From a virus, in the IMG/VR virus record IMGVR_UViG_3300018426_001942, positions 1 through 64,000 of that record: 64,000 nucleotides of DNA; one strand, written 5' to 3'. A program made the translations under genes and the position numbers. The notes beneath the pieces were generated by a model. It was given only the letters and a program-made list of their open reading frames with translations, ran no database searches and was not told the DNA's origin. Shown one piece after another: positions 3,423 to 61,652 of this stretch (the stretch's first letter is position 1; each line of letters opens with the position of its first letter).

Positions 3423-6400
3423 ATGGCAAGACAAGAAGTAGACATCGGCATTGAAGGTAATGACGGAACCGGTGATAGTATTAGAGAATCGTTTCGTAAG
3501 GTAAACGAAAACTTTCAAGAGATATATGCTGTAGTAGGTAAAGGTGGACAAATAACCTTTACATTGCTTGCTGACACACCAGACAGTTTAAATCCATTTA
3601 AAGGTGACGGCGTTGATGCTTACTTGCCAATAGTATCACAAGACGGCACAGAAATTGAAATTAGAAAACTAGGCTCTGACAGCGACGAGAATCCCGCCAA
3701 TGTAGACACTATTGATGTAAGTGTTGCTACTAACGGCAAAATTATTCTAAAATTAAATAGTATAACATTACAATCAGATGCTAAACCAGTATTAGGTGGT
3801 CCATTAAATGCCGCCGGCGTTGCTATAGCAAATGTAGGAACTGAACTAGATGACGTAACTGGATTTAACAATACTCATGGTACATCTTTTTCTATCGATG
3901 ATATAGTTATTGACAAGAAGTTTGCTGACAAAAACTACATCCGTAGACAAGATCCAGGAGAAACAATTAACGTACCAGCAGAGCCTGCTGACGGATCAAG
4001 TTATACAAAAGTCTTTACAGTAAGTTTATCATCTGCGGTTGGTGTTGGGACAGCACTTATACCACAACACGGATTGACAAGAGGTTCTGATGGTGCAGCA
4101 TACATTTTTAATACTTCAGGTACAGGATTAAATTGGAGTAGAATTGATCCAGCAACTGACACCCTAGTTTCTAGCACAGACTTGGACGACAACAATCAAC
4201 TAATTTATGGTCCTTTAGAAAATGGCGATGTAGTATATCTTGGTATTTTGGACGAAAATAATATTGGATTTTTTGCTAATCCAGAAGATGCACTACTAAA
4301 TGACTCTGTAGAAAGAAATAGAAGAAGATACAAATTAACAACAACTGATTCGGCAGGTTTGAGTATTACAGACGGCGGCTTCAACGAAGACCTAGAAGGA
4401 TTTTTCTTAAGCCATCAGGTAATGCCACGTGATAGCATTGTAAGAAGACAAGGCGATACTATGGAGGGTCCGCTTACACTCCATGACCATCCAGGTGATT
4501 TAGCAGGAGCAGGAACTCCAAATGGTATTGCAGACTTACAGGCTGTATCAAAGTTATATGTAGATAGCCAATCAACAGAATCAAGTGCAAATATATTTGT
4601 TAGTGTTGTAGGTAATGATGCACAAAATGTTGCTCCTCCAGGTAAGGAAGGTAGTTCACTAGCATATGCGTATAGAACAATAGGCGCAGCAGCACGTAAG
4701 GCAGAGCAGATACAAATTGCTTCACCATTTGAACCTGGTCCTTATATGCAGGACATATTTACATCACGAGTAATAAACGAAGGCGATCCCGCTGTTGTAG
4801 AACTTTCACAAGTTACACAACGAGGCTATGCAACAGGTGCAGGTCTTGATAGTAGAGGTAACACTAAGTCACTTGTTGATGCTAACAAAAACTTTATTAT
4901 TGCTGAAGTTATAGCATGGAAAAATGAACAAATAGAAAATAAAGCTACAACTACTGTTGGAACAACTACAGTCAACTGGACAGATAGAGTTGTAAATGAT
5001 AGAGCTCTTGAACTTGATTTGAGCATAGCATTGGATGCAGCACTGTTAGATCACGTAGCAGGTACACTTGCATCAGCACTATCTACAAGGGTTGGTGTAG
5101 AGTTTTATAATGACGAATATGGTAGGTCACAAAATGGTCTACTAAAAACTGTTTATGCACATTTATTAGAGCAAGCAAGGACTATTACAGCAAGTATTAT
5201 TACAAATACACCTGTAACTCCTTCGCAAACAATTTACACACAAGAATTGATTACATTTGGTTCTAACCAGCCAGACAGCGATGACGCAGCTTCAGTAACT
5301 GGCATATCAGGTAATATGGCAATACAAAGAGATATTGTTTTGAATGGTGTGTTCTCTGCAGAGACTCCGCAGACCGGTAACAGATACGAACTATTTTTTA
5401 GTAACAGTGTTAACGGAATAAGCCAAGGTAAAGTTGACCAAGGCGATCCACAAAACAGAGATCTACGAGTAGGTAAAGTTATTAGAGGTAAGACATCTGG
5501 GGCTATTGGTAAAATTATTAGATATTTTACAGGCGATGATAACATTAACAATCCAGGATCTACTGACGATTTAGCAGAACTAGAATTGCTTACACCAGTA
5601 GAATTCACAATAGGTGAAAAACTGGAAATGGGCAACATTGTTAACAATAGACAAATCACTATTAGAATAGAAACAGGACAGTATTTTGAAGACTATCCAA
5701 TTAGAGTTCCTGCAAACGTATCACTAGTTGGTGATGAATTTAGACGAGTTATTATTCGTCCAAAAGATGAAGTTTCTCAATCACCATGGTCTGGAACATA
5801 TTTTTATAGAGATAAAGAATTTGACGGCTTAACAGGTGACAGTGATAGTGTCACAGGTGTAGCAGATCCTAACTTACCAGTAGACGGTGAAGCATATATT
5901 AATCCGCTTACAGGAGAAACAGATGGATATTTTGGTAGACATTATCTATACAACCCCAATTTACCAAAAAACGTAGACAATGGCGGCAACCTTGCTATTA
6001 CAAATCCAGGACAGTATGTAGATGCAGCTGTTTTAATTGAAAAGAACAAAGAATTTGTAATTGCAGAAGTTATTGCATTCCTTGATTTTTCAAAAGATCA
6101 AAGTAACCAAGGACAACCAGGATATACAGGATATGCAGGTGTTGTATGGGACGATCAGGCTAGAGACAGATATAGAAGAACAATAGGAAGTTTATGTGAC
6201 GCTATTGCTGCTGATTTAAGAGCAGGTGGTAGCATTAATACATTACATATCCAAGGTAGTATTTTCTTCGATGGGTTAAATTATACAAATGAGGCAACCC
6301 CAAGATACCAAAGTATTATATCAGCGGCTGATGTTATACAAAATGTAATTATAAACAATGCTTACAATAACATACTTTATGCAGCTTTTAAAGGTTCAGA

Positions 6401-9400
6401 TCATCCAACTCAATACATCAATACAAACTTGACAGGTGGTGCAGATGTCGCTGGCAATGGTAACTTAGTGTATGATATTGTTGAATTGATTAAATGGGGT
6501 AACGACGAAAGTCCAAACAATGACTGGAACCCAGCAAAACGATCAACAGCACTAGATGCTTTCTTAATGAATGATGCTACTATCCTACGTAATATGACTG
6601 TTCAAGGTCATGGCGGATTTATGTGTGTGCTAGATCCAGAAGGACAAATTCTTACTAAATCACCATATATTCAAACAGGGTCAAGTTTCTCGCAATCACT
6701 TAATAGACAAGCATTTAGAGGCGGGATGCTAGTTGATGCGTTCTGTGCTAACACTCCAGTTAAAGTTACAAGTGTTGAAGCTAACGGATTTGAGCTATTA
6801 GTTACAGCAGACCCAGGAAGCGGTTTGTCTATTAGAAAGCCGCAAACACCTTGCCCATTTTATATTAATGGTATTAGATATCAGGTAAACGATGTTACTG
6901 ATTACAATGACGGTGGTGCATTACTTGCTCCAACAGCAAGATTAATACTTGACTCAACTTCTGGACCAGTAAGTGACGCAAACCCAGATATTAACATAGG
7001 TTGGGATGAAGTTGAACTACCTATACCAGGCGGCGGCTATGCTATAACACTTCAAACAGCGGGTAACAGATCTCAGCTAGGTAACGACTTTACACAAGTT
7101 AACGACTTAGGTTATGGGCTTGTTACTATTAACGGCGGATTGAGTGAAATGGTTAGTATGTTTACATACTACTGTCATACAGCATACTATGCAGGTAATG
7201 GTGGACAAATTAGATCATTAAACGGTTCTAACGCAAATGGTGTATATGGACTTGTTTCACAAGGTAGTGACCCTAACGAAGTACCAGACAATGTTGTTCT
7301 TAAGAATGACATGGTACAGTCAGCAAAAACATTTAGTGCTGTTACAGTTCTTGAACTTACAGCAAATTTAAGTGTAACGGCAGGCGATGCTATTGCTAAT
7401 GCTGGTTCTACACCAAGTGCAAGCGGCGAATCAGTTTTTGCAACAGTAGGCAAGAAACTATATCTTGATACTACATCAGGAAGTTTTACACCTGGCGATA
7501 GTATCTTTGTAAATGGTGTAGACTCGGGTGTTGATATTGCTCTTAATGGAGTAGATACAACTGGTTACACTAACGTAGCAACACAACTTAGTATGCACGT
7601 ATACGATTTAGAACATATTCCTACTAATAAAGGTGAAATAGATTATTACCATGATGATGATCCTGTATCACCTTTAAATAGAATAGGACGTTATGAGCTT
7701 GCAAACATTCAAACAATGAATGGTATTTTAGTTGACGGTTATACATTAGACAACACAGAGTATGTTTTTAATCCTGTAGCAAGAACAACAAATGTAAATG
7801 GAGTAGTAGGTAATGATGAAAGCGATCCTGTTACAGAAACTACAGAAGCTGTTATAGTTATATCTAAATCTCAACAAACTGTAAACGGACAATCAGGAAT
7901 TTATAAAGTTAATATATTTGGTACAGAACGTGGAGATCACTACAAGATTGGTGACACGTTTACAATATCAGGAACGCAACTAGGTGGTGTAAGTCCTACA
8001 CATGATGCAACAGTAACAGTAACAGAAATTAACCGTAGCACAGTAAACATTGATAACGGTATCCAAACAGGAAGCATTAGACGTATGTCAATTAGTGGTG
8101 CTATTAATATTATTCCTAACTTTACACCTCAGCGAGATGGACAAGTTTATAAACTTAACTTTAGTACATCAAATGACCAGTTCGATAACGATGGATTATT
8201 CCAGGATATTCCAGTTAACCAACCTGTCGATATTAGGCAAAACCAAACACACTTATTTAGAGATATCGAAAGTGTAGGTAGTTTAACAATTAGACCTAGT
8301 ACGGCTGTAAACTTCGACGATGATCCATTAGATACTTATAGATCAATTAGTTTTGGAGTAAACGATAGTGCAGGTGGATTACTTTTAGATGACGAATCTT
8401 TAACAGGCTTTGACGCAACATATGATTTTGTACAACTTTTAATTAACGATAGTTATAAAAACTTAGCAGGGTCTACATTGTCAGTTCCATCTAGTTCAAC
8501 AACTCTAGGCGGAACACAAGGCGACACTACTATTGCGATTGAACGACTTTCAGAATTAAAAGATATATTTAAATTAAATAACAACTTTGATACAGATGCA
8601 CAATTCCAAACTATTCCGGCAGACGACACTGGTAGAGACTATACTATAACATATGAATTACCCAAAGTTATTTCTTGGCGTGGTAAAAAACATATTGTTT
8701 ATAACTATAGAGAAGTAAAAGTTGAAAGTGGTAATCACAACATAAAAACAACTTTCTCAGAAGAAAACACCTATGCGGTAGTTGACTTAAAAGAAATTGA
8801 AGAAGTTAAACTTACTCTAAATGACTATGGCTCTTGGGAAAGAGATGTTTTCTACAATCTAGCACAAAGATCTGTTCTTGTTAGACAAGTTGGTAATACT
8901 TCAGCAAGCGGTAAAGTTAAAGTAGCACAATTCAATGAAAATGTATTAGACTTATATGACTGGTCAGGCGTAAACTTTAATACAACTGGTGCATTAGAAA
9001 TCAGTATTGACAATGGCGCAACTTATACAACTATGACTGACCTGGCTACAAATTCTGTAAATCTTGTTCCAACACTAGTTGAAATTAGAGACACAAACGT
9101 TACAGGTGTAGCATCGGGTATTTCACAACCACTTAGCCAAGGCTTTAATAGTGTAATTGCTCTTAGAGCAGGATTACAAGACGGTGCTCCAGCAAAAATT
9201 ACTATACAAATTAGTACATGTAGAGCTACAGGACACGACTTCCTAGACATAGGTACAGGTTCATTTAACCAAACAAACTATCCAAATGTTATTTTAGGTT
9301 TCCCAGCAAGAGAAGCTGTACAAGATAATGAAATACAAGAACGTAACAAAGGTAGAGTGTTCTTTGTAAGTACTGACCAAGATGGTTTCTTCCGTGTTGG

Positions 9401-12374
9401 TAGATTCTTTACAGTTGACCAAGGTACTGGTACAGTTACATTTGCTGCAAGTATTGCACTTTCAGATGTTGACGGTATTGGATTTAAACGTGGTGTTGTT
9501 GTTACTGAATTCTCAACAGACAATGCAATGAGTGACAATGCTAACGATACTGTTCCGGTTGAAAGTGCTGTTAGAGGATATGTAAACAGACGCTTAGGTT
9601 ACGATCAACAAGGTAATGCTGTAACAAATCCATTAGGACCAAGTGTTCTACAGCAAAATGGTAGTGTTCCTTTAACAGGTAACTTACAAGCAAACTCAAA
9701 TACTATTACAGGTATTGCTCCTGTTGATCTTACACTTACAGCAGGCACAACCGCTGTAAACAAAGACTATGTAGATAGCAGAGCTGAAGGTGTTAAGAAG
9801 TTTAAAGACTTGCGTGACACATCAATTGGTGGCGGACAAGCAGGTGATATTTTAGGTTTAACTGGACACTACAGTATTTGGCTTGATGCTAATAGCATTA
9901 ACAATAAATCAGAGTTTGTAGCAGGCAGAGTTTTAACAAACAGTGGCGGTACAACAAACTATGGTACAATAAGCGGTTATGATGACGAAGTTTATGATAA
10001 CGGTTTAGGTGATGTATATATTGTTTACTTTGATGCTGGACCAGATATTGCTACACTATCAGAATTTAATTTAGGATTTAATGGTACTACAATAGCAGGT
10101 TTAAAGAGTGGTGCACCAGCAATTTACTCTAAACCAGACGGCGGCGTTGTTGGCGGAAATGCAAAATATATAAACGGCCCATTCCAAGATATAATTAACA
10201 TATCTGAAGAGCCTTTTGTAAATGCTACGCCAGTAAGTGACATCAGTTTAAGCACACGTCGATTAGATAATGACGATGCTGTTCCTAGCACACCGTCAAA
10301 TCCTACAGCATACTATAATATGCAAATTAATCCAGGTGTGATTCTAAATGCTGACGTAAATGATAGTGCAGGCATAGTTCAATCTAAACTGGATATGCAA
10401 GAATCAGATACTTTTGTAACAACAGCAGACGATCAAATAACAATTCCAGCAACAGAAGTTGTGGTTGGATTTAATTACGAAATTATTCTTCAAGGCACTA
10501 CAGACTTTACAACATTAGGTGCTAGTGCAAGCACAGCAGGAACTACATTTACAGCAACCGTAAGTAATCCTAATATAACAGGTGGCGGTACTGTTAAAAG
10601 ATTACAAAGCAATATTGTTGTTAAAGATCTAGCAGACGATACAGATGCAAACAACCAAGCAACACTAGGATTGTCAAGTTTTGATGGTGCAAATTTTAAA
10701 GTTACAAGAGGACATGTACAACTTAAAGATAACGGGATACCTAAGACAAAGATAGAACAAATTGCTACACAAACTGTGCTAGGTAACTCAACAGCAAACA
10801 CAGCTAACGTTGCAGAAGTGACATTTGAGACAGTAGTTAATGACGGTAAAGGTATACAACATGGTGACTTTTCAACCACAGCGATAGACGCTGAGGCTGG
10901 TCAAGAAGTTATGCTTAGAACAGATAGCACAGCAGACGCTGAGCTATATGCTGTAACCACAACAACTACTACAGGTGAAGCAAGTAAAATTGTTTCTACA
11001 GATACTGGCGGTAATATAGATGCACAAGGTTATAAATTAAACAACTACACAATCATAACACAATCAGGTTCAGGCAGTGATGGCGTACTTACTGTTAAAT
11101 CAATACAGACAGGGGTAGGTATAACTGTAGCAGGTGGTAGTGCAACAGACCCAGCATACACAACTGTATATGGTGATTTGAATGTTGGTAACCTAACAGA
11201 TCCAGATGGTGCTGATGCTGATTCAGATCCAGATGTATTTGATAGAAGCGCACTTCATGTATCAGCTGATACAGCATTTGATACAGCGAACAGTATAACA
11301 GGTACTGAATCAAGATTTGTTGCTTCTAAATGGATGTACACAAACTTTATCGAATCAGTAGACGAAAAAGGCGCAACATCAGCAGGTATTGCTCTAGGTT
11401 CATACAGCGGGAAAGTTGATGTAGGTAATGTTGGTATTATTGCAACTAACGGAACAGTACAGAAAACTGTTGCTTCGTTTGGTATGCTAGATAGCGACAG
11501 TGACGGAACAGTAGATACTCTTGCTATTTGGCCTGAAGATGACAACACTGTTGATATCGGTAACGCTAACTATCGTTACAAAACAATTTATGTTAAAGCT
11601 GTAAATGTAGATGGAGATATTACTTCTAGTGGTGGTACATTTGGTAATATCCAAGTAGGTGTAACCGCTGATGGTGAAATTGATACTTCGGATGGTGATC
11701 TTACACTAGACAGTACTGGCGGTACAGTTATAGTTGACGATAATCTTACAGTTGAAGGTACATCAACTCTTAAAGGTGATGTAGACATAGGCAATGCTAT
11801 AGCCAGTGACACGTTGACTGTGTCGGCAAAAGTTGACTCTAATTTTATACCAAGCGGTACATCACGTAACTTAGGAGATTCTACAGATTATTGGGCAAAT
11901 GTGTTTACAAGAAGTTTAACCACAGGTGCAAATACAACAACAGGTACTATAACTGGTGACTGGTCACTGACTTCAGGATCTAAATTACAGTCAACATATG
12001 CTGACTTGGCTGAGATGTATTCAGCAGATGCAGAGTATGAAGTAGGAACTGTGGTTGTGTTTGGTGGCGAAGCAGAAATTACACTTACTAATACTAAAGG
12101 CGACACAAGAGTTGCTGGCGTAGTAAGTGAAAATCCAGCGTTCGTAATGAACCAAGAATGTCCAGGCATTGCAACCTGCATTGCATTACAAGGAAGAGTA
12201 CCATGTAAAGTTATAGGCACTGTTAAAAAAGGTGACATGCTTGTAACTAGTGCAATTCCTGGTTACGCTATTGTTAATAACACACCAGGAGTTGGTAGTG
12301 TAATTGGTAAGGCTGTAACAACTAAAGATACTGATGACAAAGGTATTGTTGAAGTAGTAGTAGGACGAGTATAA
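3423..12374 (+). CDS. Giant virion structural/fibre protein (2983 aa)
   Basis: N-terminal GNDGTGDSIRESFRKVNENF like T4 gp10/gp9; beta-helix cap motifs (IFVS..GND..., TGQYFEDYPIRVPANVSLVGDE); C-terminal YADLAEMY...GRVPCKV...GD.LVTS chaperone-like domain. Confidence 0.8.
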   Translation: MARQEVDIGIEGNDGTGDSIRESFRKVNENFQEIYAVVGKGGQITFTLLADTPDSLNPFKGDGVDAYLPIVSQDGTEIEIRKLGSDSDENPANVDTIDVSVATNGKIILKLNSITLQSDAKPVLGGPLNAAGVAIANVGTELDDVTGFNNTHGTSFSIDDIVIDKKFADKNYIRRQDPGETINVPAEPADGSSYTKVFTVSLSSAVGVGTALIPQHGLTRGSDGAAYIFNTSGTGLNWSRIDPATDTLVSSTDLDDNNQLIYGPLENGDVVYLGILDENNIGFFANPEDALLNDSVERNRRRYKLTTTDSAGLSITDGGFNEDLEGFFLSHQVMPRDSIVRRQGDTMEGPLTLHDHPGDLAGAGTPNGIADLQAVSKLYVDSQSTESSANIFVSVVGNDAQNVAPPGKEGSSLAYAYRTIGAAARKAEQIQIASPFEPGPYMQDIFTSRVINEGDPAVVELSQVTQRGYATGAGLDSRGNTKSLVDANKNFIIAEVIAWKNEQIENKATTTVGTTTVNWTDRVVNDRALELDLSIALDAALLDHVAGTLASALSTRVGVEFYNDEYGRSQNGLLKTVYAHLLEQARTITASIITNTPVTPSQTIYTQELITFGSNQPDSDDAASVTGISGNMAIQRDIVLNGVFSAETPQTGNRYELFFSNSVNGISQGKVDQGDPQNRDLRVGKVIRGKTSGAIGKIIRYFTGDDNINNPGSTDDLAELELLTPVEFTIGEKLEMGNIVNNRQITIRIETGQYFEDYPIRVPANVSLVGDEFRRVIIRPKDEVSQSPWSGTYFYRDKEFDGLTGDSDSVTGVADPNLPVDGEAYINPLTGETDGYFGRHYLYNPNLPKNVDNGGNLAITNPGQYVDAAVLIEKNKEFVIAEVIAFLDFSKDQSNQGQPGYTGYAGVVWDDQARDRYRRTIGSLCDAIAADLRAGGSINTLHIQGSIFFDGLNYTNEATPRYQSIISAADVIQNVIINNAYNNILYAAFKGSDHPTQYINTNLTGGADVAGNGNLVYDIVELIKWGNDESPNNDWNPAKRSTALDAFLMNDATILRNMTVQGHGGFMCVLDPEGQILTKSPYIQTGSSFSQSLNRQAFRGGMLVDAFCANTPVKVTSVEANGFELLVTADPGSGLSIRKPQTPCPFYINGIRYQVNDVTDYNDGGALLAPTARLILDSTSGPVSDANPDINIGWDEVELPIPGGGYAITLQTAGNRSQLGNDFTQVNDLGYGLVTINGGLSEMVSMFTYYCHTAYYAGNGGQIRSLNGSNANGVYGLVSQGSDPNEVPDNVVLKNDMVQSAKTFSAVTVLELTANLSVTAGDAIANAGSTPSASGESVFATVGKKLYLDTTSGSFTPGDSIFVNGVDSGVDIALNGVDTTGYTNVATQLSMHVYDLEHIPTNKGEIDYYHDDDPVSPLNRIGRYELANIQTMNGILVDGYTLDNTEYVFNPVARTTNVNGVVGNDESDPVTETTEAVIVISKSQQTVNGQSGIYKVNIFGTERGDHYKIGDTFTISGTQLGGVSPTHDATVTVTEINRSTVNIDNGIQTGSIRRMSISGAINIIPNFTPQRDGQVYKLNFSTSNDQFDNDGLFQDIPVNQPVDIRQNQTHLFRDIESVGSLTIRPSTAVNFDDDPLDTYRSISFGVNDSAGGLLLDDESLTGFDATYDFVQLLINDSYKNLAGSTLSVPSSSTTLGGTQGDTTIAIERLSELKDIFKLNNNFDTDAQFQTIPADDTGRDYTITYELPKVISWRGKKHIVYNYREVKVESGNHNIKTTFSEENTYAVVDLKEIEEVKLTLNDYGSWERDVFYNLAQRSVLVRQVGNTSASGKVKVAQFNENVLDLYDWSGVNFNTTGALEISIDNGATYTTMTDLATNSVNLVPTLVEIRDTNVTGVASGISQPLSQGFNSVIALRAGLQDGAPAKITIQISTCRATGHDFLDIGTGSFNQTNYPNVILGFPAREAVQDNEIQERNKGRVFFVSTDQDGFFRVGRFFTVDQGTGTVTFAASIALSDVDGIGFKRGVVVTEFSTDNAMSDNANDTVPVESAVRGYVNRRLGYDQQGNAVTNPLGPSVLQQNGSVPLTGNLQANSNTITGIAPVDLTLTAGTTAVNKDYVDSRAEGVKKFKDLRDTSIGGGQAGDILGLTGHYSIWLDANSINNKSEFVAGRVLTNSGGTTNYGTISGYDDEVYDNGLGDVYIVYFDAGPDIATLSEFNLGFNGTTIAGLKSGAPAIYSKPDGGVVGGNAKYINGPFQDIINISEEPFVNATPVSDISLSTRRLDNDDAVPSTPSNPTAYYNMQINPGVILNADVNDSAGIVQSKLDMQESDTFVTTADDQITIPATEVVVGFNYEIILQGTTDFTTLGASASTAGTTFTATVSNPNITGGGTVKRLQSNIVVKDLADDTDANNQATLGLSSFDGANFKVTRGHVQLKDNGIPKTKIEQIATQTVLGNSTANTANVAEVTFETVVNDGKGIQHGDFSTTAIDAEAGQEVMLRTDSTADAELYAVTTTTTTGEASKIVSTDTGGNIDAQGYKLNNYTIITQSGSGSDGVLTVKSIQTGVGITVAGGSATDPAYTTVYGDLNVGNLTDPDGADADSDPDVFDRSALHVSADTAFDTANSITGTESRFVASKWMYTNFIESVDEKGATSAGIALGSYSGKVDVGNVGIIATNGTVQKTVASFGMLDSDSDGTVDTLAIWPEDDNTVDIGNANYRYKTIYVKAVNVDGDITSSGGTFGNIQVGVTADGEIDTSDGDLTLDSTGGTVIVDDNLTVEGTSTLKGDVDIGNAIASDTLTVSAKVDSNFIPSGTSRNLGDSTDYWANVFTRSLTTGANTTTGTITGDWSLTSGSKLQSTYADLAEMYSADAEYEVGTVVVFGGEAEITLTNTKGDTRVAGVVSENPAFVMNQECPGIATCIALQGRVPCKVIGTVKKGDMLVTSAIPGYAIVNNTPGVGSVIGKAVTTKDTDDKGIVEVVVGRV

Positions 12375-15500: not shown

Positions 15501-15905
15501 CAATTTAGAATAGTAACAGGAAAGGTAAATGACTTACTAAGTAGAGCAGGTTATTCAACTTTACTTGCAAGTAATCCTAACTCACAGGGACTAGTATATA
15601 GAATAGTTGCAACAGAATATGTACCAACTAAAACTATTGTAGGGTTGGGTAGCACAGATGGTAATAACGACTATGTTCTTCCACTAGATAGTGTAGACGG
15701 TCTAAATGTAAGCGATGTGGTCCGCTTAGTGAACCACAGTACAACTCCTGCATCAGGAGGATTGAACGGAACCATAAATTCAATAAATACGATAAGCAAT
15801 ACTATAACAATTGATTTTGGTGTAACCACAATTCAAACGCCGGCGAGTTCCGGACAAGTTGCACTACAAAATAATTTCGTAGTAGCCAAAGGGAAAATTA
15901 ACTAA
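12549..15905 (+). CDS. Fibre-like virion protein with C-terminal right-handed beta-helix
   Basis: Repeats DGxxGQxLxTxGxGxxxF; IPKGTSAQR...FEGYDG module; DDTEAVQLAID...LKGSG...IRDLRIDGN pectin-lyase-like region. Confidence 0.75.
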   Translation: MANRFPLVIDTTSGNQFRELPDGDNLLLTNSSIVNALDITALGTVTASQLVVDGTVFRNDYNDLQNLPTIPTSILQLGIGDGTSGQFLTTNGTGTISFQNIPTQDPTMGGDLQGSASNAQIKANTIGIDELDVDDGTIGQVLATDGSGNLQFIDMSGGGGGGGATSFLGLSGQIGLSQIDDDFITPEKLKDNGQTPTPGQYLTVAAGGDFEYLDIPTTNPQWDDVQNKPTIPATLTDLGISEGNDGDVLKTDGAGTYTFTAFNSIENIEFSGTTIRTVPDNSNIAIDPKGNGYVNIIGTNGVVIPKGTSAQRAPDVAGAMRLNTELGIFEGYDGSNWNGLGGVRSVDGLTYVSAELTPNASDDTLRFITNSQTSATLTESLLDLNSAVSVKIRSTQSALDFDSGALSVDGGVSIKGNLIVSGAITVNEEFNTSVKVNATALSGGTQTSIVTVNPADIDYFNTGQKIRIFGASADNIDQDTSNLGIQVNRVGFATPDGSGNEVTFSYRVAQMDTQSGKISAVSSAVDITIEPDEINDFNNNKNLQLVVSRVSSAHNILIYRKIGSEVNYTLLKVLGPKELGVALSNVVWTDYYDFDVAPWSKRTTQGLFTTDSGLVHVPLVASATPKLGWIDTEITQIDPNTNNLTVANSFYASQTSIEVVVDDTEAVQLAIDSAKAQNRNSYELENRTYFIKRLEIPDGFTLKGSGDQTRIIKQYWSTETSTGDNTIIRPKSGYTSYSNITIRDLRIDGNAQNQYLSTDTTSEFLNFAFYLYGNDLLYENIELDNVIGGGIYAYHPTITNNLTILNSEITSGGLTYSYDYQPLYADECRTIKIAHNTFRDFPGPISVSAVQKGIVSPNIVDNCGEGIFAYGATKIVLSPNVLLGPAGEFIANPDVLNSEYDSVNITLEPNIDFNSPAYVYQENGAFFDFTANQGSLTGLINELTKVNNVEELVIPGGSNPDYSQTLGGEDYISFTTPGDANGNFQFRIVTGKVNDLLSRAGYSTLLASNPNSQGLVYRIVATEYVPTKTIVGLGSTDGNNDYVLPLDSVDGLNVSDVVRLVNHSTTPASGGLNGTINSINTISNTITIDFGVTTIQTPASSGQVALQNNFVVAKGKIN

Positions 15906-18900
15906 TGTCAAGTCTAAATAACATAAACAATAATGCTTCGGTCGTAAACGTAGGTAGAACTACTCCAGTAACACCCGGCGCACAACCAGCAGCAAACAGT
16001 ATTCCGGTTGTGGTTGCTACAGATCAAACAGCAATTCCAGTCGTTGAACAGAACAAAATACAATCAGAGGTTGCACTTTCTCTACTTGGTATTCCAAGAT
16101 CAGAAGTTGCACTAGGTATATTTGCAGACGTTAACACTTACGATGTTAACCCAAGCGAATGGTCAAGTGAACCAGCAGAATATTCACAAGTTCCAAATAC
16201 AGCATCTCAATATAGTGGAATTGGCGGAGTACAAGACTGGGGTATTTTGCACTTACCAGAAGAATCAGGTGCAATGGTTACAGCACCGGCAGACGAGACA
16301 TCAGTACTAACAAGTAAAAGATTTTTTAGATATCAACCAGGACGTGTTTCTGCAGCTACATTTGGTATTAAGAGTTCATTTGCATCAGGCAATGTTGTAG
16401 GTGCAGGACAAAGACCACCAACACGTAACCCTGACGTTAAAAAATATGGTATCTTTGATAAGTTTGATGGCTACTATTGGGAAACAAGAGATACTGGTCA
16501 AGGCGACCAATTTGCTGTAGTAAGACGTACACAGTCTATTATTAGAAAAAATCCATTAGAATTTGGTAACAGTGCAGGACAGCAATTAGAAGATCATGCA
16601 CTAGGTGGTAAGGCTCCCGGACAACCAGCAAGCACATATAACCAATATCCTACAGCAACCAAATACTTGACAGCAAACAAATTTGATCTAATTGACGGAA
16701 GTGTACTAAGCAATAGTGCTGTTAAATGTCAAAGAGATTTAGGTTACTTCCTTGAAGCAATAGGAACAGACATTACACTTGGCACTAACTACGGTAGTAC
16801 ATTCCAAGGACTTGCAGAGTCAAACTCCAACGAGTATCCTTTACCAACAAGTGTTACTGATGCAATTAACAGTTCACAAACTGAAGTTAAATCATTAGCA
16901 GGTGTTGATAACACAGCAGACGCGGCTGTAGACACATGGTATAACAATTTACGTGCTATTGCTGTTGATCCTGCTACACGAGTAGACTATGCTAGTGCAA
17001 CACAGGCAGAGCAAATTGCTTTCCTAAAGGCTGTTACATTTACTAATCCAACTAGCGGCGGATCAGCAAGTAGAGAAGCTGTAAAAGATCAACTAGTTGC
17101 AAACAGAGACTTTATAGCGGCAGAAATAAATGCTTGGGTAGCAGATCAATATCCAAGTGCTAGTCACAATGTAAACAAATGTACACGAGATGTATTGTTT
17201 GTTCTAAACGCTGTTAGTTATGATATATTATATGGCGGAAACAGTGCTACATACGATGCTGGCAGGTTCTTCTTTTACGATGGGTTTAGTAAGAGCGACC
17301 AAACAGCAAACTATATTACACAAACTGTTGCAGCATATGGTAGACTTGCAGATATTATAGACGACATAGTTAAAGACGTTACTATTGTTAAAACAACAGG
17401 TAACAGTGAAACACAAGTTACAGGCAATGGTGTTGCAAACCAAACAGAAGCAGATCTAGCTGTTACATATACAAACGTAATTAAAGATGTAATTAGCGAA
17501 GGCGACATACTGTTAAGTCTTCCTGTTACAAGAACAGTTCCAGATACTTCTTGGGGTGCAGCTTCAATGACAGCGGCACAAGCGGCTATTACAGCTGCTA
17601 CACAAACAATAGTAGAAACTGTGGCTCCAGTAACATTTACAGGAGATGATTTAAAATGTAAGAGAGATTTAGAATTTGCGCTAGATGCTTACATTAACGA
17701 TTTAAGATGGGGCGGTGATGGACATATAATTGCAAACGCGGCAACCTATAATACAGCATTACTTACAGACGCAGAGCGTGAGGGAGAAACTCACTATTAT
17801 TTCAGAAATAAGCTAAGAGAAAAATTAGCAGAAATTGGCGAACTAGATGCAAGAACTAAAATTGGTAATCTTGCTAAATTCCAAATACAGGCTGTGACAG
17901 CAAATGGTTCAGGTGCATACCCTGCACAACAAGGACCAGATGGAACAACAGGATTTATTACAAATGCACAAATTGCTAGTGCTACATATGGCCAGCGTAG
18001 TAAAATAGAAACTATATTCAGTGTATATGCACTTTACTATGGTTATCTTGTAAGTGAGAGTTTAACATATGATACAGCAACACATTTGCCTGACGGAGCA
18101 GATCCTAATGATTTCTTAAATGTATTGAAGTTTAAGTGTATTAGAGATGTTAAGTATGTTGTTAACGGATATGCAAGCGACTTACAGTTCGGTGGCAACG
18201 CAGCTACAGCATACAATGCATTTAAATATTACAGTGACGGCGCATTAAAAGTTTATTCACAAACAAATGGTGGTGTAGTTGCTGAAATTAATAGACATAC
18301 ATTTTTGAAAGATCTATTAACAGCAACAGGCACAGTAGATGTAACACGTAGTGATTCTCAAAATGTTGCTATACCAAGTTTAGCAACACGTTTTGCTTTA
18401 ACAACAGAGCAAACAGACAAGCTGAATACACTCGCTAACATTATTATAAACAACTTTACTACACAATACGCCGGTTCAGTAGATTATGGTACAGCAGGAC
18501 AGTTTGGCGATCTTGTTATTTTAAGGGATGGATTAATTATGGTGCATGCTGCAGCTTACGATCCTACACTATTAAAGCCAAGACTAAAAACACCAGCACA
18601 AATTGATACAACAAATAATACCTTTACACTTGCAGAAGGAAGTGTTATAATAGGACAGTATGTAAACTATTATGGTGATTGCCCAGAACTAGTTGATGGT
18701 AAAACATATTGGGTAAGTGAAGTAAAAGGACCTAAAGGTAATGTAATTACATTAATGGATCCTGCGGTTGCAGACTTTGATCAATTTGACGTAACACCTA
18801 GTAACAACACTCCAATTACACTAACAGGAGCAGGAACTGAACACTATATCGAAACTCCAGTTCCATTTATATTCCCAGATGCATATAATCAATCATTTGG

Positions 18901-20644
18901 TTTAGCAGGTGTTGAAGAAAGATATGATGGCATGTTCCCATACTTGTATACATCATCTGGTGTATTACCAGCAGAACAAGCAGATGTTACAATAGGTTAC
19001 ATAGATACAGCAATTGACACTAGTGTTGATGCTGCATCTTTAAGAACACAAATTGATGACCTAAACTTCAAGTATAAGACTTGGGTGCGTGATCATGTCG
19101 ATCCTAGATATTACAGTGTTTATGAATATAGAGTAGGTAGAACAAGATTCTCCGGAGACAGTTTAGACGGTACAACACGTAACAGTGTATACAGTGATAA
19201 CGTACTAGATAAAAAAGCCGGTGAGCTATTCTTAGGCACAGGCGTATCAGCACAAGAACAAACATCAGTTTGGGACATGGACTTTAGTAAGGTGACCATG
19301 CTTAAAGTTGAATTTAGTTGGTATGGTGCTGTTGGTGCATTGTTCTTAGCATATGTTCCAGTAGACAACGGCGAAGCACGTTGGGTAAGAGTACATCATT
19401 TACGTTGTTCAAACCAGTTGAAGATATCTTCACTAGGTAATGCTACACTTCCAATTACATATCTTGTTTACGGCGGAGGAAGTGAAAACAGATTTGGTGT
19501 TCCAAATGCTAATAGATTGCAAAACCCATATGGTAGTTACGCAGAAAGCCTCGTCAAGTATGGTGCTTCTTACTACATTGATGGTGGTGACCGCGGTACT
19601 GTAAGATTGTTTAACCACAGTTCGGAAACACCAACTGATGTATATGGTTCAAGATACAAACTAGGAGTTGATAGTACAAATGCTACAGATCCTGTTACAC
19701 CTATAATGACTGTAACAAATCTTGATCCTGATGCTACAGGAAACTCTGCACCCGCAATTAATACATTCTATATGAATGCAAGAGTAATAACAGGTAACTC
19801 ACAAGACCAAAACGTAAAAGTAATTTGGGTTGATGGTAATGACTTATATTTGAATAAACCAGTAAGTGCTGTTTCGACATTAAATGTAATCGTTGATAGA
19901 CCAGCATTACTATATGGTTTAAAAACCAAAGACGACATTACATCAGGTAACGGTGACGCTGTTAGAAACAGAGTACAGGTATATCCAACAAGATTAAGTG
20001 CAGGAGCAGACGGAACTGTAAATGCTAAAATGACATTGCTCAAAACACCTAAGTTCCAAACAGCAATAGGAACCACTGGAAGTTTTGCGTTAAATGCATC
20101 TGTAGACTTAAACAGCTCGTACTTACTATCAACTACTGATACAGACTATCTATCACAAAATGGAGACTTCTTATATGGTTACTTCCGTGCAAGTTTAAAT
20201 GGTAGTGAAACTTTGATTAGTGTATTAGGAAGATTAGAAAAAAGCAATGACAACTACTACTTCTATCCAACAGAGATATATAATGGAACATTAGAAGTTG
20301 CATCAGGTGCAACATTCTTGAAAGAAGGAGTATTTGATCCACAAGGTAATAGTTTGACTTCAAGCGAAACTACTTTTGAAAAGGAACGTTTAAGCTCAGT
20401 AGAAGTTGCTCTAAGAGCGCAGACTCCAATACCTGGATCAGGTACTGAATTAGCAAGTTATTACATTGCACCAGGTGCTGAAGAATTTGACCTAGCAACA
20501 TATTTTGACTACAACAAGGAATACATAAGTTATCCATTGACTGACCAGTTAGAAACATTGTTCTTAGCAACATTCAGTAACAACACTAATTCTACTAGTC
20601 CACAGGTTTCATTAAGTGCCAGCTTGACATGGGAGGAACAATAA
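15905..20644 (+). CDS. Large virion protein with four inserted phycobiliprotein-like repeats; paralogue of 20648 ORF
   Basis: Shares RYQPG, F.WYGA.GA, KYGAS.YIDGGD blocks with next ORF; four KCxRD repeats. Confidence 0.7.
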   Translation: MSSLNNINNNASVVNVGRTTPVTPGAQPAANSIPVVVATDQTAIPVVEQNKIQSEVALSLLGIPRSEVALGIFADVNTYDVNPSEWSSEPAEYSQVPNTASQYSGIGGVQDWGILHLPEESGAMVTAPADETSVLTSKRFFRYQPGRVSAATFGIKSSFASGNVVGAGQRPPTRNPDVKKYGIFDKFDGYYWETRDTGQGDQFAVVRRTQSIIRKNPLEFGNSAGQQLEDHALGGKAPGQPASTYNQYPTATKYLTANKFDLIDGSVLSNSAVKCQRDLGYFLEAIGTDITLGTNYGSTFQGLAESNSNEYPLPTSVTDAINSSQTEVKSLAGVDNTADAAVDTWYNNLRAIAVDPATRVDYASATQAEQIAFLKAVTFTNPTSGGSASREAVKDQLVANRDFIAAEINAWVADQYPSASHNVNKCTRDVLFVLNAVSYDILYGGNSATYDAGRFFFYDGFSKSDQTANYITQTVAAYGRLADIIDDIVKDVTIVKTTGNSETQVTGNGVANQTEADLAVTYTNVIKDVISEGDILLSLPVTRTVPDTSWGAASMTAAQAAITAATQTIVETVAPVTFTGDDLKCKRDLEFALDAYINDLRWGGDGHIIANAATYNTALLTDAEREGETHYYFRNKLREKLAEIGELDARTKIGNLAKFQIQAVTANGSGAYPAQQGPDGTTGFITNAQIASATYGQRSKIETIFSVYALYYGYLVSESLTYDTATHLPDGADPNDFLNVLKFKCIRDVKYVVNGYASDLQFGGNAATAYNAFKYYSDGALKVYSQTNGGVVAEINRHTFLKDLLTATGTVDVTRSDSQNVAIPSLATRFALTTEQTDKLNTLANIIINNFTTQYAGSVDYGTAGQFGDLVILRDGLIMVHAAAYDPTLLKPRLKTPAQIDTTNNTFTLAEGSVIIGQYVNYYGDCPELVDGKTYWVSEVKGPKGNVITLMDPAVADFDQFDVTPSNNTPITLTGAGTEHYIETPVPFIFPDAYNQSFGLAGVEERYDGMFPYLYTSSGVLPAEQADVTIGYIDTAIDTSVDAASLRTQIDDLNFKYKTWVRDHVDPRYYSVYEYRVGRTRFSGDSLDGTTRNSVYSDNVLDKKAGELFLGTGVSAQEQTSVWDMDFSKVTMLKVEFSWYGAVGALFLAYVPVDNGEARWVRVHHLRCSNQLKISSLGNATLPITYLVYGGGSENRFGVPNANRLQNPYGSYAESLVKYGASYYIDGGDRGTVRLFNHSSETPTDVYGSRYKLGVDSTNATDPVTPIMTVTNLDPDATGNSAPAINTFYMNARVITGNSQDQNVKVIWVDGNDLYLNKPVSAVSTLNVIVDRPALLYGLKTKDDITSGNGDAVRNRVQVYPTRLSAGADGTVNAKMTLLKTPKFQTAIGTTGSFALNASVDLNSSYLLSTTDTDYLSQNGDFLYGYFRASLNGSETLISVLGRLEKSNDNYYFYPTEIYNGTLEVASGATFLKEGVFDPQGNSLTSSETTFEKERLSSVEVALRAQTPIPGSGTELASYYIAPGAEEFDLATYFDYNKEYISYPLTDQLETLFLATFSNNTNSTSPQVSLSASLTWEEQ

Positions 20645-20647
20645 TAA

Positions 20648-23600
20648 ATGCCTCAGATAAAAATAGGATTCGACAGAATACCTATACCTACTTCAAAGTC
20701 ATTTGTACCTCTTTATGATATTGTAAAAGGGGTACCACTACGAGATTCAAACGGGCAAATAATTGTTACCGAAGATGAAGGTCCAGTAGAAGCTCTATCT
20801 AAAGCAGAAAACAGTACAAGTGTAGTTATTAATAATGCTGTAGTAGATAATACACAACTTTCTATAGAAGAACAATTTGCCGAAACTTCGCAAGTTAGTA
20901 CGACACTACTAGGCATACCTAGAGCTGAAGTACAATTAAGTTTGTTTTCTGATGTTAGTACATACGGTCTTAATCCTGAAGAATGGGAATTTTTTCAGTA
21001 TAATGGAGTATTTGGTCGTCCTGATGGATGGTATCGTAGACGTAATAGAGTTTATGGTGATCATTTTTATACAAGACTAGTTGAAGAAACAAACGAGCAA
21101 GCATTAGTTGTAGAAAGTTTTCCAGTAGCATTTACTTTTCCACCAGGCCCAAATTACATTAATGGCGGATACAACGAGGCTGTATTTAATAGATACTTAC
21201 AATTTATTAATCTTGGTAACGATATGTATAATTTATATATTGGTACCAATGAACAATTTGCAGAAGAAAACTTTTTAAATCCTGCTATATGCTTTGTACA
21301 AGATGGCGATGTAGAATATCCTGATGATGAACAATTAGGCTATGATTTAATTGAAAATTGGTGTCAAGCATGGATGAACATGCGAGATGGATTGCTTATT
21401 GATCCTAATACTAATACCCCAATTAAATTTCCTGTAGGATATGATGCTACAAATACTAGACCAGGACAAACAGATAATATACAATACTTTGGCTTACTAC
21501 AAAGTAAAAAAGCATATAGATATCAGCCTGGACGTATATCAGGATACACTTTTGGTTTTAGAGCAAGCCGAGACGAAGCAAGTATAGACAACATCATTGA
21601 GTGGGGTATCGGAAATCCTACAGATGAATATGTATTTCAGATTAGAGGTCCACAGTTTAATATCGTAAGACGTAGTACAGTTAGATTGCCAAATGAAGTT
21701 CTACAAAGAATGGGCATGAATGAAAACAATCAACAAGTAGTTTCTAGTAGAGAACCTTTCGTAGAAGATGAATTTTATGAACTAGTAATTACTAGAGATT
21801 TTTTCAACGGCGATGCGTTAGATGGTAATGGTCGATCAGGTTACTTACTCGACCCAACCAAAGTTACTATGTACAAAATTGAGTTTGGTTGGTATGGTGC
21901 TATTGGTGCTAAGTTCTATGCTTATATTCCAACAGACACAGGTGATGCACGTTGGGTGCTTATGCATACACTAACAATTGAAAACCAATTAGGCGAGCCT
22001 TGTTTACAAGACCCATATTTTAAATTTAGATATCTACAAGATATTAGAAACACAAGTAACATTAGAGAACCACAGTACCTTTACAAATATGGTGCTTCGT
22101 GCTATATAGACGGTGGCGATAATAGTGCAGGAAAATATTACAGTTATACTAGTGATGACAAAACTGTAAATAATGCAAGACAAACATCTATTGCGGGGAT
22201 TTATCCAAAGCGTACAATTAAAAATAGTGACGGTGTAGAAAAGCCTAATAAGAAAAATGTTTTTCCAGTGGATTTGAAAATAGATTGTGATCAACTATCG
22301 GAAGTGCAATTGGTTGAAATTAACGGGTGCCCAGCATTTGGGCATCACTATGCACCTAGTTTACATGCTACACAGAATGGTATAGTTAGAAGTGTTAATA
22401 TTAATGGTGCAGGTAGTGAAATAACAATTAATCCACAACCAACTGTAAACATTGCAAATATAAGCCAAGCAAATCCAGGAATTGTTACTACAGATACAGA
22501 TCATGGATTCTTTATTGGACAAAAAGTTACATTAGAAAATGTAGTTGGTATGACAGAAGTTAATTTTCAAGAGTATTACATAGATGTTTTATCTGCGACA
22601 CAGTTTGCATTATATTCAGATGCTGACTATTCAAATGCTGTTGACACGTCTGGATTTACAGCATATGCAAGTGGCGGAACAGCAGACGGCAATCCTATTT
22701 TTAGAACACGTGACGACGACAGTAAATTAATTGTTCCTGGTATTAACAGTTGTTATGCGGCTATTACAAGTGAATCAACAGCAAATATTGAACGAATTGG
22801 ATTTGACGCTCTGTACGAGAAAAGTTCTACAGGAACTATCGATCCGCAAGTTTTACTAAATGGTGTAGTTACTGATTTAGCAAGTGTACCAGTTGACGCT
22901 GTTAGATTTACAAGTTACTATGATCATATTGCTGGTTCAACATATCCAATTACAGGTGACGGATTTGAATGTAATTATTTAAACCCTGTAACTACAGAAG
23001 GCACACAGTTTTGTGAATTCTTAATTGGAGTGACAGAAAACAAACCTATAATTTCTACTAGAACAAATGCATTAGGTAATCCAGTTAATGAAGTTAAGTT
23101 TTTAGCAAAGGATGGTATAACAGAAATAGAGCCAGACCTAGCAAACATATTGCATGCAGAGTTCACACATAGTTCACTCTATAGAGATAGAGACGGTTTT
23201 GAAGAAAGAGAAGGCGATGCACCCTTAGGCATTAGGTTTGATATTGATTATAGATTACCAAGACCAGAAGGTACAGATAGCGGAATATGTAGCGGTATAG
23301 ATGTAAAGATAGAAGATAGATTAGAATTTAGTGTTACATATGCAAGTGCTGATCCAGTATCAGGACTTCCTTCAGACATAATAATATTTGATCAAGAGCC
23401 GAGTGAAATAATAAACGGCTTTTCGCTAGTAGGTGGTGAGTTTGGAGAATCAGGCGTAGCAAGCGGAATTAGATTTACATCAGAATTAAAGAGTTATATT
23501 GATAACGAAGATGTTGAAAAATATTATATAGATATAGACGGTGCTCCAAACAACGGAGCATTTACATTGCAACTAAGTCCTATAAGACTTACTGATAGAC

Positions 23601-24091
23601 TGATAACAGGTAACCCAGAAAAATCAGTTAACAAAGTGCAAATTTTTAGTTTCCAGCCAAAACCTTTGTACTTGGTAGTATTCATGCGTGACAATGCTAG
23701 AATGAATAATATTACTATTACTGAAAACATTAACGGAACTACTAGAGCATTTTGTCCTGAATGGATAACCGATTCAGGTGTTGATGTTGTATTCTCAGGA
23801 GGATCAAGTGCAGGTGTTCCTGCTGCAAACTATCTTCCAAAAGAAAGACTAGCAAGTACTAGTGTTGATGTTCAAAATTCACAACCTTTAAGACCTGGTA
23901 AACTTAAAGACACATTGTATGTTTCACCAAACAGGAATAATACTGTTGACTTAGGAAGCGTTTATGGTCCAGATAGGACTGTAATATCTCCGGGAATATT
24001 AAATACAACAGCAACATTTGTTACGGCAAGAAGTCTTATAAACAATGATGTTAACTTAGTTAGCGCAAGTATTACAACGAAGGAAGATTAA
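20648..24091 (+). CDS. Large virion protein, paralogue of 15905 ORF, with E1-FCCH-like beta domain
   Basis: Shared blocks as above; ISQANPGIVTT..HG...GQKV...VVGMTEVN motif. Confidence 0.7.
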   Translation: MPQIKIGFDRIPIPTSKSFVPLYDIVKGVPLRDSNGQIIVTEDEGPVEALSKAENSTSVVINNAVVDNTQLSIEEQFAETSQVSTTLLGIPRAEVQLSLFSDVSTYGLNPEEWEFFQYNGVFGRPDGWYRRRNRVYGDHFYTRLVEETNEQALVVESFPVAFTFPPGPNYINGGYNEAVFNRYLQFINLGNDMYNLYIGTNEQFAEENFLNPAICFVQDGDVEYPDDEQLGYDLIENWCQAWMNMRDGLLIDPNTNTPIKFPVGYDATNTRPGQTDNIQYFGLLQSKKAYRYQPGRISGYTFGFRASRDEASIDNIIEWGIGNPTDEYVFQIRGPQFNIVRRSTVRLPNEVLQRMGMNENNQQVVSSREPFVEDEFYELVITRDFFNGDALDGNGRSGYLLDPTKVTMYKIEFGWYGAIGAKFYAYIPTDTGDARWVLMHTLTIENQLGEPCLQDPYFKFRYLQDIRNTSNIREPQYLYKYGASCYIDGGDNSAGKYYSYTSDDKTVNNARQTSIAGIYPKRTIKNSDGVEKPNKKNVFPVDLKIDCDQLSEVQLVEINGCPAFGHHYAPSLHATQNGIVRSVNINGAGSEITINPQPTVNIANISQANPGIVTTDTDHGFFIGQKVTLENVVGMTEVNFQEYYIDVLSATQFALYSDADYSNAVDTSGFTAYASGGTADGNPIFRTRDDDSKLIVPGINSCYAAITSESTANIERIGFDALYEKSSTGTIDPQVLLNGVVTDLASVPVDAVRFTSYYDHIAGSTYPITGDGFECNYLNPVTTEGTQFCEFLIGVTENKPIISTRTNALGNPVNEVKFLAKDGITEIEPDLANILHAEFTHSSLYRDRDGFEEREGDAPLGIRFDIDYRLPRPEGTDSGICSGIDVKIEDRLEFSVTYASADPVSGLPSDIIIFDQEPSEIINGFSLVGGEFGESGVASGIRFTSELKSYIDNEDVEKYYIDIDGAPNNGAFTLQLSPIRLTDRLITGNPEKSVNKVQIFSFQPKPLYLVVFMRDNARMNNITITENINGTTRAFCPEWITDSGVDVVFSGGSSAGVPAANYLPKERLASTSVDVQNSQPLRPGKLKDTLYVSPNRNNTVDLGSVYGPDRTVISPGILNTTATFVTARSLINNDVNLVSASITTKED

Positions 24092-46668: not shown

Positions 46669-47161
46669 ATCTCCAGATCCGTGGTTAGAAAAGGTTGTAG
46701 ATCCTTTTGATTTCGAAAAGCACGATGCCGAACAAATTTCCAAAGAAATGCTTGAAATTATGGAGCAAGAAGGCGGAATAGGATTGAGTGCAAATCAAGT
46801 TGGGTTCAATGGACAAATTTTTGTTATGAAGCCGCATTTGCTAGAAGATAATAGTCCACTTACAATTATTAACCCAAGCATAGAGCAAGTAACAGTAAAC
46901 GCAGAATCTATGCCAGAAGGGTGTTTAAGTCATCCAAATTTGTTTTTAAAGGTTAGTAGACCTAGAGGTATTGTTGTAAAATATCTTGACACACAGCAAA
47001 AAGAATGTATAATAGAATTATACGATATAGATGCAAGATGTTTTTTACATGAATACGATCACTTACAGGGTATCGAATTTACTAGTCGTGTATCTCGCCT
47101 TAAACTTGATATGGCAAGAAAGAAGCAAATAAAATTAAGGAAAAAATATCCACATGGTTGA
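46655..47161 (+). CDS. def: Peptide deformylase
   Basis: GIGLSANQ, EGCLS, HEYDHLQG. Confidence 0.95.
   Translation: MKLIKSPDPWLEKVVDPFDFEKHDAEQISKEMLEIMEQEGGIGLSANQVGFNGQIFVMKPHLLEDNSPLTIINPSIEQVTVNAESMPEGCLSHPNLFLKVSRPRGIVVKYLDTQQKECIIELYDIDARCFLHEYDHLQGIEFTSRVSRLKLDMARKKQIKLRKKYPHG
46986..47013 (+). promoter_or_regulatory. Internal sigma70-type promoter upstream of clpA
   Basis: TTGACA-16nt-TATAAT inside def. Confidence 0.5.
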
Positions 47162-59403: not shown

Positions 59404-59404
59404 T

Positions 59405-59518
59405 ATGAAAGTAAAAATGGAAATAGAAATTGATACAGAAAGAGATCAAGATCTAGCAACTATACGAGAGCTTATAGAAATGCTAAGAGCTTTAGCAGAA
59501 AACTATGAGGTAGACTAA
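59405..59518 (+). CDS. Micro-protein (37 aa), not in ORF track
   Basis: GGAG RBS; TAATG coupling. Confidence 0.5.
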   Translation: MKVKMEIEIDTERDQDLATIRELIEMLRALAENYEVD

Positions 59519-59712: not shown

Positions 59713-59743
59713 TTACAGGAAAATGGCTGTAAGAGGAGGTAAC

Positions 59744-61649: not shown

Positions 61650-61652
61650 CGA

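Follow-up and report, generated by a model that had tools for sequence, protein, structure and literature searches.

Phycobiliproteins share the bilin-attachment motif CXRD with BBAG-1 and BBAG-3, which are globins of heterotrophs (Rockwell, Martin & Lagarias 2023, PMC10151467). BBAG-1 and BBAG-3 attach bilins without lyases; BBAG-2 and the photoglobins lack CXRD, and it is the CXRD clade that binds reduced bilins covalently (PMC10151467). Working haem oxygenase and bilin reductase genes also occur in phages of non-photosynthetic marine and freshwater bacteria (PMC11480375). The purpose of this hemO-pcyX/A cassette in phages of heterotrophs has been stated as unknown, and a BBAG-type acceptor was raised merely as a possibility (2024 Nat Commun, PMC11480375). 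The subject here is a set of four tandem domains with this motif in P0001, the 1579-amino-acid (aa) product of the open reading frame (ORF) 15905-20644 of a viral DNA stretch. This stretch, called the window below, comprises the 64,000 nucleotides (nt) at positions 1-64,000 of IMG/VR record IMGVR_UViG_3300018426_001942.

P0001 is a virion structural protein from the fibre/baseplate cluster of an uncultured marine jumbo myophage. Its four domains belong to the bilin-binding-globin superfamily, which holds the phycobiliproteins, the BBAGs and the bilin domain of ApcE. A full-text literature search, which had subscription journals outside its coverage, found no paper on such domains in phage structural proteins.

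The units are like C-phycocyanin alpha (CpcA) in their predicted globin-type fold, their length of about 150-160 aa and the '...Y..FP' end of helix B. In helix E they have the pattern K-C-x-R-D-x-G-Y......Y.L..G-G, with the equivalents of Cys84, Arg86 and Asp87 in register. They also differ from phycobiliproteins. There are no free alpha and beta subunits; instead, four tandem units (elsewhere up to 39) lie inside a virion protein. The phage units have an invariant Asp, Asn and Tyr of their own, P0001 stays under the Pfam cut-off, and no phycobilisome or photosynthesis context is seen in the 152-kb record.

The bilin-binding domain of ApcE is like the phage units in being a phycobiliprotein-like domain within a giant multi-domain protein. 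ApcE attaches its bilin autocatalytically. Unlike the phage protein, it has a single domain of this kind ahead of unrelated linker repeats, with the Cys at another position, and it works as an antenna component associated with thylakoids. BBAG-1 and BBAG-3 are, like the phage units, globins of the phycobiliprotein clade with CXRD. They come from non-photosynthetic genomes that hold a haem oxygenase and a bilin reductase, as do the cassette-bearing relatives of this phage described below. Their lyase-free attachment is what the phage domains would require. The BBAGs are single small proteins that adjoin the reductase, whereas the phage units form arrays in structural proteins some 50 kb from the cassette.

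K-C-x-R-D is found exactly four times in P0001, at Cys275, Cys426, Cys585 and Cys745, which means spacings of 151, 159 and 160 aa. There are six cysteines in the whole protein, and the motif Cys is the only one within each of the four domains. Given P0001's own composition, 0.015 occurrences of C-x-R-D would be expected by chance, and the probability of four or more is about 2e-9. Pairwise identity among the four units is 17-19%, which indicates old copies and no recent duplication.

All four domains are on the + strand and were detected with hmmsearch. Domain 1 (about aa 248-345, 16646..16939, E 3e-16 to 2e-18) reads KCQRD, with the codon for Cys275 at 16727-16729. Its N-terminal half is shortened in the helix layout of the AlphaFold2 (AF2) model, and one orthologue, P0037, has lost this first CxRD. 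Domain 2 (about aa 326-504, 16880..17416, E 5e-39) reads KCTRD, with Cys426 encoded at 17180-17182, and is the best-conserved unit. Domain 3 (about aa 501-655, 17405..17869, E 2e-28) reads KCKRD, with Cys585 at 17657-17659. Domain 4 (about aa 660-821, 17882..18367, E 6e-24) reads KCIRD, with Cys745 at 18137-18139. Across 18 orthologues, units 2-4 show no change at C, R or D.

To search for distant relatives, a profile (A2) was made from 143 diverse units, picked by their C.RD pattern. Against the PDB it yielded 50 matches, all of them phycobiliproteins, with phycocyanin alpha as the best at E 1.3e-5. The alignments span helices B to E and cover 60-100 residues, which goes beyond the motif alone. 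In register with phycocyanin alpha are K83, C84, R86, D87, G89, Y90 and G102-G103, and each of the four domains keeps the helix-E signature of that protein. The helix before repeat 2, LVANRDFIAAEINAWVADQYP, is aligned by HMMER with the '...AVYSKFP' helix of phycocyanin alpha. When the orthologues are made into a profile, phycocyanin and phycoerythrin alpha chains again come out on top, at E 0.1-1.

Four homologues were scanned against Pfam. Three exceed the PF00502 cut-off of 22.2 bits (P0059 with 41, P0055 with 27.3 and P0075 with 25.9), and P0044 is slightly under it at 21.6 bits. A phmmer search of the PDB with the whole of P0001 returned noise only, and a search of the ESM Atlas gave no usable match. 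A scan of genome contigs for phycobiliprotein or BBAG sequences produced only phage contigs binned into metagenome-assembled genomes (MAGs), and no cyanobacterium. By their sequences, the P0001 units would be a distant sister group of the phycobiliproteins, outside PF00502 in the strict sense.

An initial annotation, made from the letters of the window, had already proposed this relationship. Its four repeats, with their Cys positions, codons and spacing, were all reproduced, down to the four 22-residue strings it quoted. The equivalence to Cys84, Arg86 and Asp87 that it suggested is borne out by the PDB matches and their register, and its fit of the helix upstream of repeat 2 to phycocyanin alpha agrees with the HMMER alignment.

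The AF2 model of aa 230-880, based on 18 sequences, is all-alpha, with a predicted local distance difference test score (pLDDT) of 86.5 and a predicted template modelling score (pTM) of 0.84. Unit 2 alone, based on 143 sequences, reaches pLDDT 84.4 and pTM 0.80. Foldseek against the PDB finds almost exclusively phycobiliproteins, plus smURFP and a 'bacterial fluorescent protein', with probability 1.0 and template modelling (TM) scores of 0.45-0.74.

A second structure search, VIA, is independent of Foldseek and compares all against all over 48,161 chains. Here allophycocyanin has Z 10.1 and a phycobilisome core subunit Z 10.0, with a root-mean-square deviation of 2.5 Å over 103 residues. These are followed by photocobilin (Z 9.4), phycoerythrin (Z 9.1), the ApcE bilin domain (Z 8.7, range 8.0-8.7), haem globin sensors (Z 7-7.8) and RsbR (Z 6.7). 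This rank order parallels the published globin phylogeny (PMC10151467). The units are thus predicted to have the globin-type fold of phycobiliproteins. AlphaFold and Foldseek on the repeat region had been put forward in the initial annotation as a check on its proposal, and the model is indeed globin-like, with phycobiliproteins first among the matches.

A search with the repeat region found some 200 large proteins in which C-x-R-D recurs 2-14 times, roughly every 140-165 aa. Among 1.84 billion clusters, the family as a whole has 1,616 representatives (50% identity clusters) that match at E ≤ 0.001. The number of units per array goes from 2 up to 39 and the longest protein has 6382 aa, which makes the four-unit insert of P0001 a small member.

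The invariant C, R and D of the A2 profile are circular, because its units were chosen by their motif. The site was therefore recounted over units defined by a hidden Markov model (HMM) in 120 homologues, which gave 623 distinct units that cover the motif column. Since CxRD units had also served to train this HMM, units without the motif are probably under-detected in the counts that follow. C, R and D are kept in 582 of the 623 units (93%), at a mean column identity of 15%. Of the 598 units that have the motif Cys, 500 contain no further Cys, which excludes an intradomain disulfide there. The 25 units without the motif Cys often have Tyr or Trp at this position, and in 17 of them R and D are both lost too; where the Cys is present, loss of R or D is rare (16 of 598 units). 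The three residues are kept together and lost together, and this means that they behave as one functional site. The C-R-D site is selectively maintained. The expectation that the Cys would be conserved across homologues, on which the initial annotation had made its proposal depend, agrees with these numbers.

The family also has features of its own. An Asp 14 residues after the Cys is nearly invariant (648 of 653 units), and so are an Asn, within GGN, and a Tyr. None of these has a phycobiliprotein counterpart.

The protein that holds the array is encoded on the + strand at 15905..20644, as given by the ORF list and its translation. P0001 matches phrog_1645, 'virion structural protein', at E 4.8e-21 in the PHROG scan, and the tail-fibre PHROGs 5342 and 4527 match it across the repeat region. 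BLASTP against the 871-aa virion structural protein UYE97279.1 of S-TIM54, a TIM5-like cyanophage, gives E-values of 6e-67 and 1e-52; the 'virion structural' label of this orthologue is the annotation as deposited. It has the same scaffold, with 53% identity in the N-terminal part (P0001 11-247 against S-TIM54 2-237), 55% over a short middle piece (860-890 against 234-262) and 37% in the C-terminal part (1032-1382 against 434-806). At the DNA level, the nearest cultured relatives of the gene are also TIM5-like cyanophages, with short end pieces only.

Together with the AF2 and Foldseek results, the BLASTP breakpoints against S-TIM54 delimit the four tandem bilin-binding-globin-type domains as a clean single-site insert of 612 aa (aa 248-859, 16646..18481, + strand). 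The S-TIM54 protein lacks this insert entirely, and so does the adjacent paralogue of P0001. Before it comes the conserved N-terminal part (aa 1-247, 15905..16645, +), which BLASTP finds in both the S-TIM54 orthologue and the paralogue. Behind it is the conserved C-terminal part (aa 860-1579, 18482..20644, +), where PHROG and BLASTP place the phrog_1645 core (FSWYGAVGA...ARWVRVHH).

The paralogue (1147 aa, 20648..24091, +) matches phrog_1645 at E 9e-38. Its BLASTP pieces correspond to aa 29-86, 134-209 and 1073-1244 of P0001, and leave aa 210-1072, about 860 aa, unmatched. That the repeats sit inside a virion protein, in an insertion that the paralogue lacks, had been claimed from the sequence alone and is supported by both comparisons. 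The length of about 850 aa claimed for that insertion holds in the comparison with the paralogue, and is refined to exactly 612 aa in the one with S-TIM54.

Among cultured phages, tblastn finds the repeats only in the T4-like Synechococcus phages S-RSM4 and S-CAM4/ACG-2014j. The 'short tail fibre' SRSM4_214 of S-RSM4 (4482 aa) has six CxRD motifs and S-CAM4/ACG-2014j has three, with further units that are detected by HMM. These fibres hold the same domain family as P0001. Unlike the phage described here, S-RSM4 and S-CAM4 are Kyanoviridae, have a cyanobacterial host that makes bilins, and have cpeT beside the gene. The carrier of the repeats is a fibre there, and a phrog_1645-type virion protein here.

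Neither the S-RSM4 nor the S-CAM4 genome has a haem oxygenase/reductase cassette. In both, a cpeT-like gene is found about 1 kb upstream of the giant fibre gene (3617-4141 in S-RSM4, 5520-6044 in S-CAM4), with only tRNA genes between the two, plus an HNH gene in S-RSM4. This adjacency may be ordinary T4-like synteny. A pattern where the pathway is carried if the host makes none fits the idea of pigmented domains, in what are two lineages only.

The full record measures 151,964 nt and is 43% complete according to CheckV. Its PolB is nearest to those of Sinorhizobium phage Phosso (50%), Agrobacterium phage Atu_ph07 (46%) and Rak2-like phages, which are jumbo phages of heterotrophs. A search of the 152-kb record found no phycobiliprotein (PF00502), psbA/psbD, haem oxygenase, bilin reductase or CpeT gene.

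The bilin pathway is found in relatives. Among 50 repeat-bearing IMG/VR viral records, five have adjacent genes for a haem oxygenase and a ferredoxin-dependent bilin reductase. The only complete genome, of 357 kb, is among these five, as are four of the six records with a completeness of at least 36%. None of the records has psbA. One of them, G003, is collinear with the present record over 25 kb (G003 3-26,755 against window 2-25,180, 49-81% aa identity). Its cassette is at 60.4-61.5 kb, about 34 kb past the left end of the record. None of the cassette-block genes (Hsp20, ClpS, HemO and the reductase) is seen anywhere in the 152-kb record. Since the G003 site falls beyond the left end of the record, this absence does not count as a negative. 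None of the long PolB-bearing contigs of relatives extends to the cassette location either.

The cassette block was annotated in two of the five carriers, G008 (327431-330991) and G003 (58943-62293). In both, the order is Hsp20, ClpS, HemO and reductase, and then a coiled-coil-like protein of 420-490 aa. The reductase frame in G003 is short, at 161 aa, and is possibly truncated.

The association was also approached from the other side, with 24 viral contigs chosen solely because they have a PcyX-like reductase and at least 50 kb of sequence. The repeats are present in 16 of these, in ORFs of 2000-3000 aa, and in 11 of the 12 that reach at least 75 kb. The contigs are syntenic, with the cassette about 50 kb from the fibre genes.

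Some of the data on these reductases is filed under bacterial and archaeal names. PcyX-like reductases with 66-73% identity to the phage ones are on contigs in MAGs of Halobacteroidaceae, Pirellulales, Crocinitomicaceae, Coraliomargarita and Neomarinimicrobiota. Further ones are filed under Rickettsiales (71%, a partial match) and a Methanobacteriota archaeon (52%). One such contig, of 335 kb, also bears repeats. These look like phage contigs that were mis-binned. The MAG 'Rhodobacteraceae bacterium Water_Bin34' has a contig of 69,507 nt with a 4021-aa ORF of at least 12 repeat units. An IMG/VR contig whose PolB is 88% identical to that of this phage has the same length, 69,507 nt, and the two are probably one phage contig filed twice. 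Reductase and repeats are both present in the Water_Bin34 bin, and this was rejected as a co-occurrence, as they are on separate contigs of a mixed bin.

The preferred explanation for all this is that, while assembly proceeds inside the infected cell, each domain would be loaded with a linear tetrapyrrole, be it phycoerythrobilin, phycocyanobilin or biliverdin. The pigment would be derived from host haem through a phage-encoded haem oxygenase and PcyX-type reductase, the cassette that collinear relatives carry. A thioether to the motif Cys would fix the bilin, and Arg and Asp would hold the propionate and the pyrrole nitrogens. Attachment is proposed to be autocatalytic, as in BBAG-1/3 and ApcE, because no lyase gene was found. 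Once released, the virion would bear an appendage with four pigments on each chain. In cyanophages, the host would supply the bilin. We put the probability that the P0001 domains are covalently loaded with bilin at roughly 0.55.

The weakest step concerns what the pigment is for; our guess, preferred over photoprotection, is that it would let light control adsorption. In its fullest form, the appendage would be a true biliprotein that serves as a photoreceptor on the free particle, with light gating adsorption or genome ejection. This is a speculative extension that we hold to be rather unlikely. A role as haem or iron bait was dropped, as no feature supports it.

Several results weigh against bilin loading. 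The structural evidence has its soft spots: the Foldseek E-values are weak, at 0.025-0.3, and a VIA Z of around 10 is little above the helical background. P0001 matches no Pfam family at E ≤ 0.1, and only one of the 143 single units matches PF00502 at E ≤ 0.01. Cys-less and fully degenerate units persist in the family, and two of the Cys-less ones are in the neighbouring fibre protein, which means that the fold can serve, or at least persist, without the site. The record, 43% complete as it is, has no haem oxygenase, reductase or lyase, and no lyase of the CpeT or CpeS type was found in five jumbo relatives. A relative of 270 kb, 76% complete, has the repeats and not the cassette. Conversely, the complete 141-kb genome of Pelagibacter phage Mosig has hemO and pcyX and gives no match to the repeat profile, by a method that gave clear matches in the reductase-selected contigs. 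This means that the cassette serves some other purpose, whether alone or in addition. Finally, the synteny shared by the reductase-selected contigs makes the association of repeats and cassette the trait of one lineage, and so roughly one evolutionary event.

The initial annotation had tied the repeats to the hemO/pcyX genes of marine phages, and proposed a search for the oxygenase, the reductase and a lyase. None is in the 152-kb record, but the oxygenase/reductase pair is in a collinear relative. The tie holds circumstantially, through that relative and the repeats on most long reductase contigs; it is limited by the single lineage and by Mosig, which lacks the repeats.

Many of the same observations would suit a module without pigment. 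A phycobiliprotein-like globin fold may have been recruited as a rigid helical block of fibres, as a spacer or a receptor-contact surface, with C-x-R-D kept for folding, inter-domain packing or contact with the host surface. Arrays of 2-39 units in giant fibre-type proteins are typical of structural repeats, and the pTM of the multi-domain model implies fixed packing between the domains. The persistence of degenerate units, the cassette of Mosig and the missing lyase in the relatives all point the same way. Such a module leaves unexplained why, at an overall identity of 15%, 93% of units retain a Cys that is usually their sole one along with Arg and Asp. Equally unexplained would be the joint loss of these three residues, their register with the ligand contacts of phycobiliproteins, and a bilin pathway in a lineage without photosynthesis genes. 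We regard it as possible, at well under even odds.

The site could also serve another ligand or chemistry, such as biliverdin or haem bound non-covalently, a metal ion, or a reactive thiol for an inter-chain or host-directed bond. Among related globins, BBAG-2 and photocobilins bind biliverdin and others bind haem; the VIA matches include both photocobilin and haem globin sensors; and the Asp, Asn and Tyr that are specific to the family would find a role here. BBAG-2 and the photoglobins lack CXRD, however, and the clade that has it attaches reduced bilins covalently (PMC10151467). The proximal His pattern of haem globins is not conserved, and a reduced bilin is more in keeping with the associated reductase gene than haem is. 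We consider this improbable. Lastly, a short motif on an unrelated helical repeat might mimic the phycocyanin site through chance or convergence. The poor Pfam and Foldseek statistics given above would be expected then. Against this, all 50 PDB matches are phycobiliproteins over 60-100 residues, some homologues exceed the Pfam cut-off, two independent structure aligners rank bilin-binding globins first, and four motifs would arise with a probability of only 2e-9. Chance is close to refuted.

P0001 is part of a run of large fibre and virion genes. In order, these encode a 2983-aa protein with tail-fibre PHROG matches, a 1118-aa protein (phrog_6005), P0001, the 1147-aa paralogue and a 794-aa protein with leucine-rich repeats. 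The 2983-aa tail-fibre-type protein (3423..12374, +) is the neighbour with Cys-less units. Two weak ones were found there by hmmsearch, at about aa 448-608 and 860-983 (E about 2e-7 each), and only with the first unit profile, not with A2. The second of these reads Q-A-R-D, with Gln at the Cys position and an apparent insertion behind it.

The paralogue (20648-24091) has a ubiquitin-E1 FCCH-type domain at aa 609-679 (E 2.5e-10), and the leucine-rich repeats of the 794-aa protein (24092-26476) are at aa 667-738. Both are probably host-recognition modules. Further along the window, 47154-49394 encodes a 746-aa ATP-dependent Lon-like protease (phrog_4871, E 7e-246). Next to the ClpS and Hsp20 of the relatives, this suggests a lineage with its own proteostasis set.

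A virion protein family with an intact bilin-attachment site, in the lineage that carries the cassette, is a concrete candidate acceptor, and it makes the question of the purpose of the cassette testable. Cultured phages exist for this: S-RSM4 and S-CAM4 bear the domains, and Mosig provides the contrast of a cassette alone. If the domains are pigmented, there would be chromophore-bearing virus particles, with a bearing on light-dependent infection, on photodamage to virions and on the optical detection of phages. Without pigment, the domains would still be a striking recruitment of a pigment-protein fold as fibre material. Should the photoreceptor idea turn out to be true, this would be the first virus particle to bear a pigment and sense light. 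Two questions would then also be answered: the reason for phycobilin synthesis by phages of non-photosynthetic hosts, and the identity of the light sensor in the light-dependent adsorption of cyanophages.

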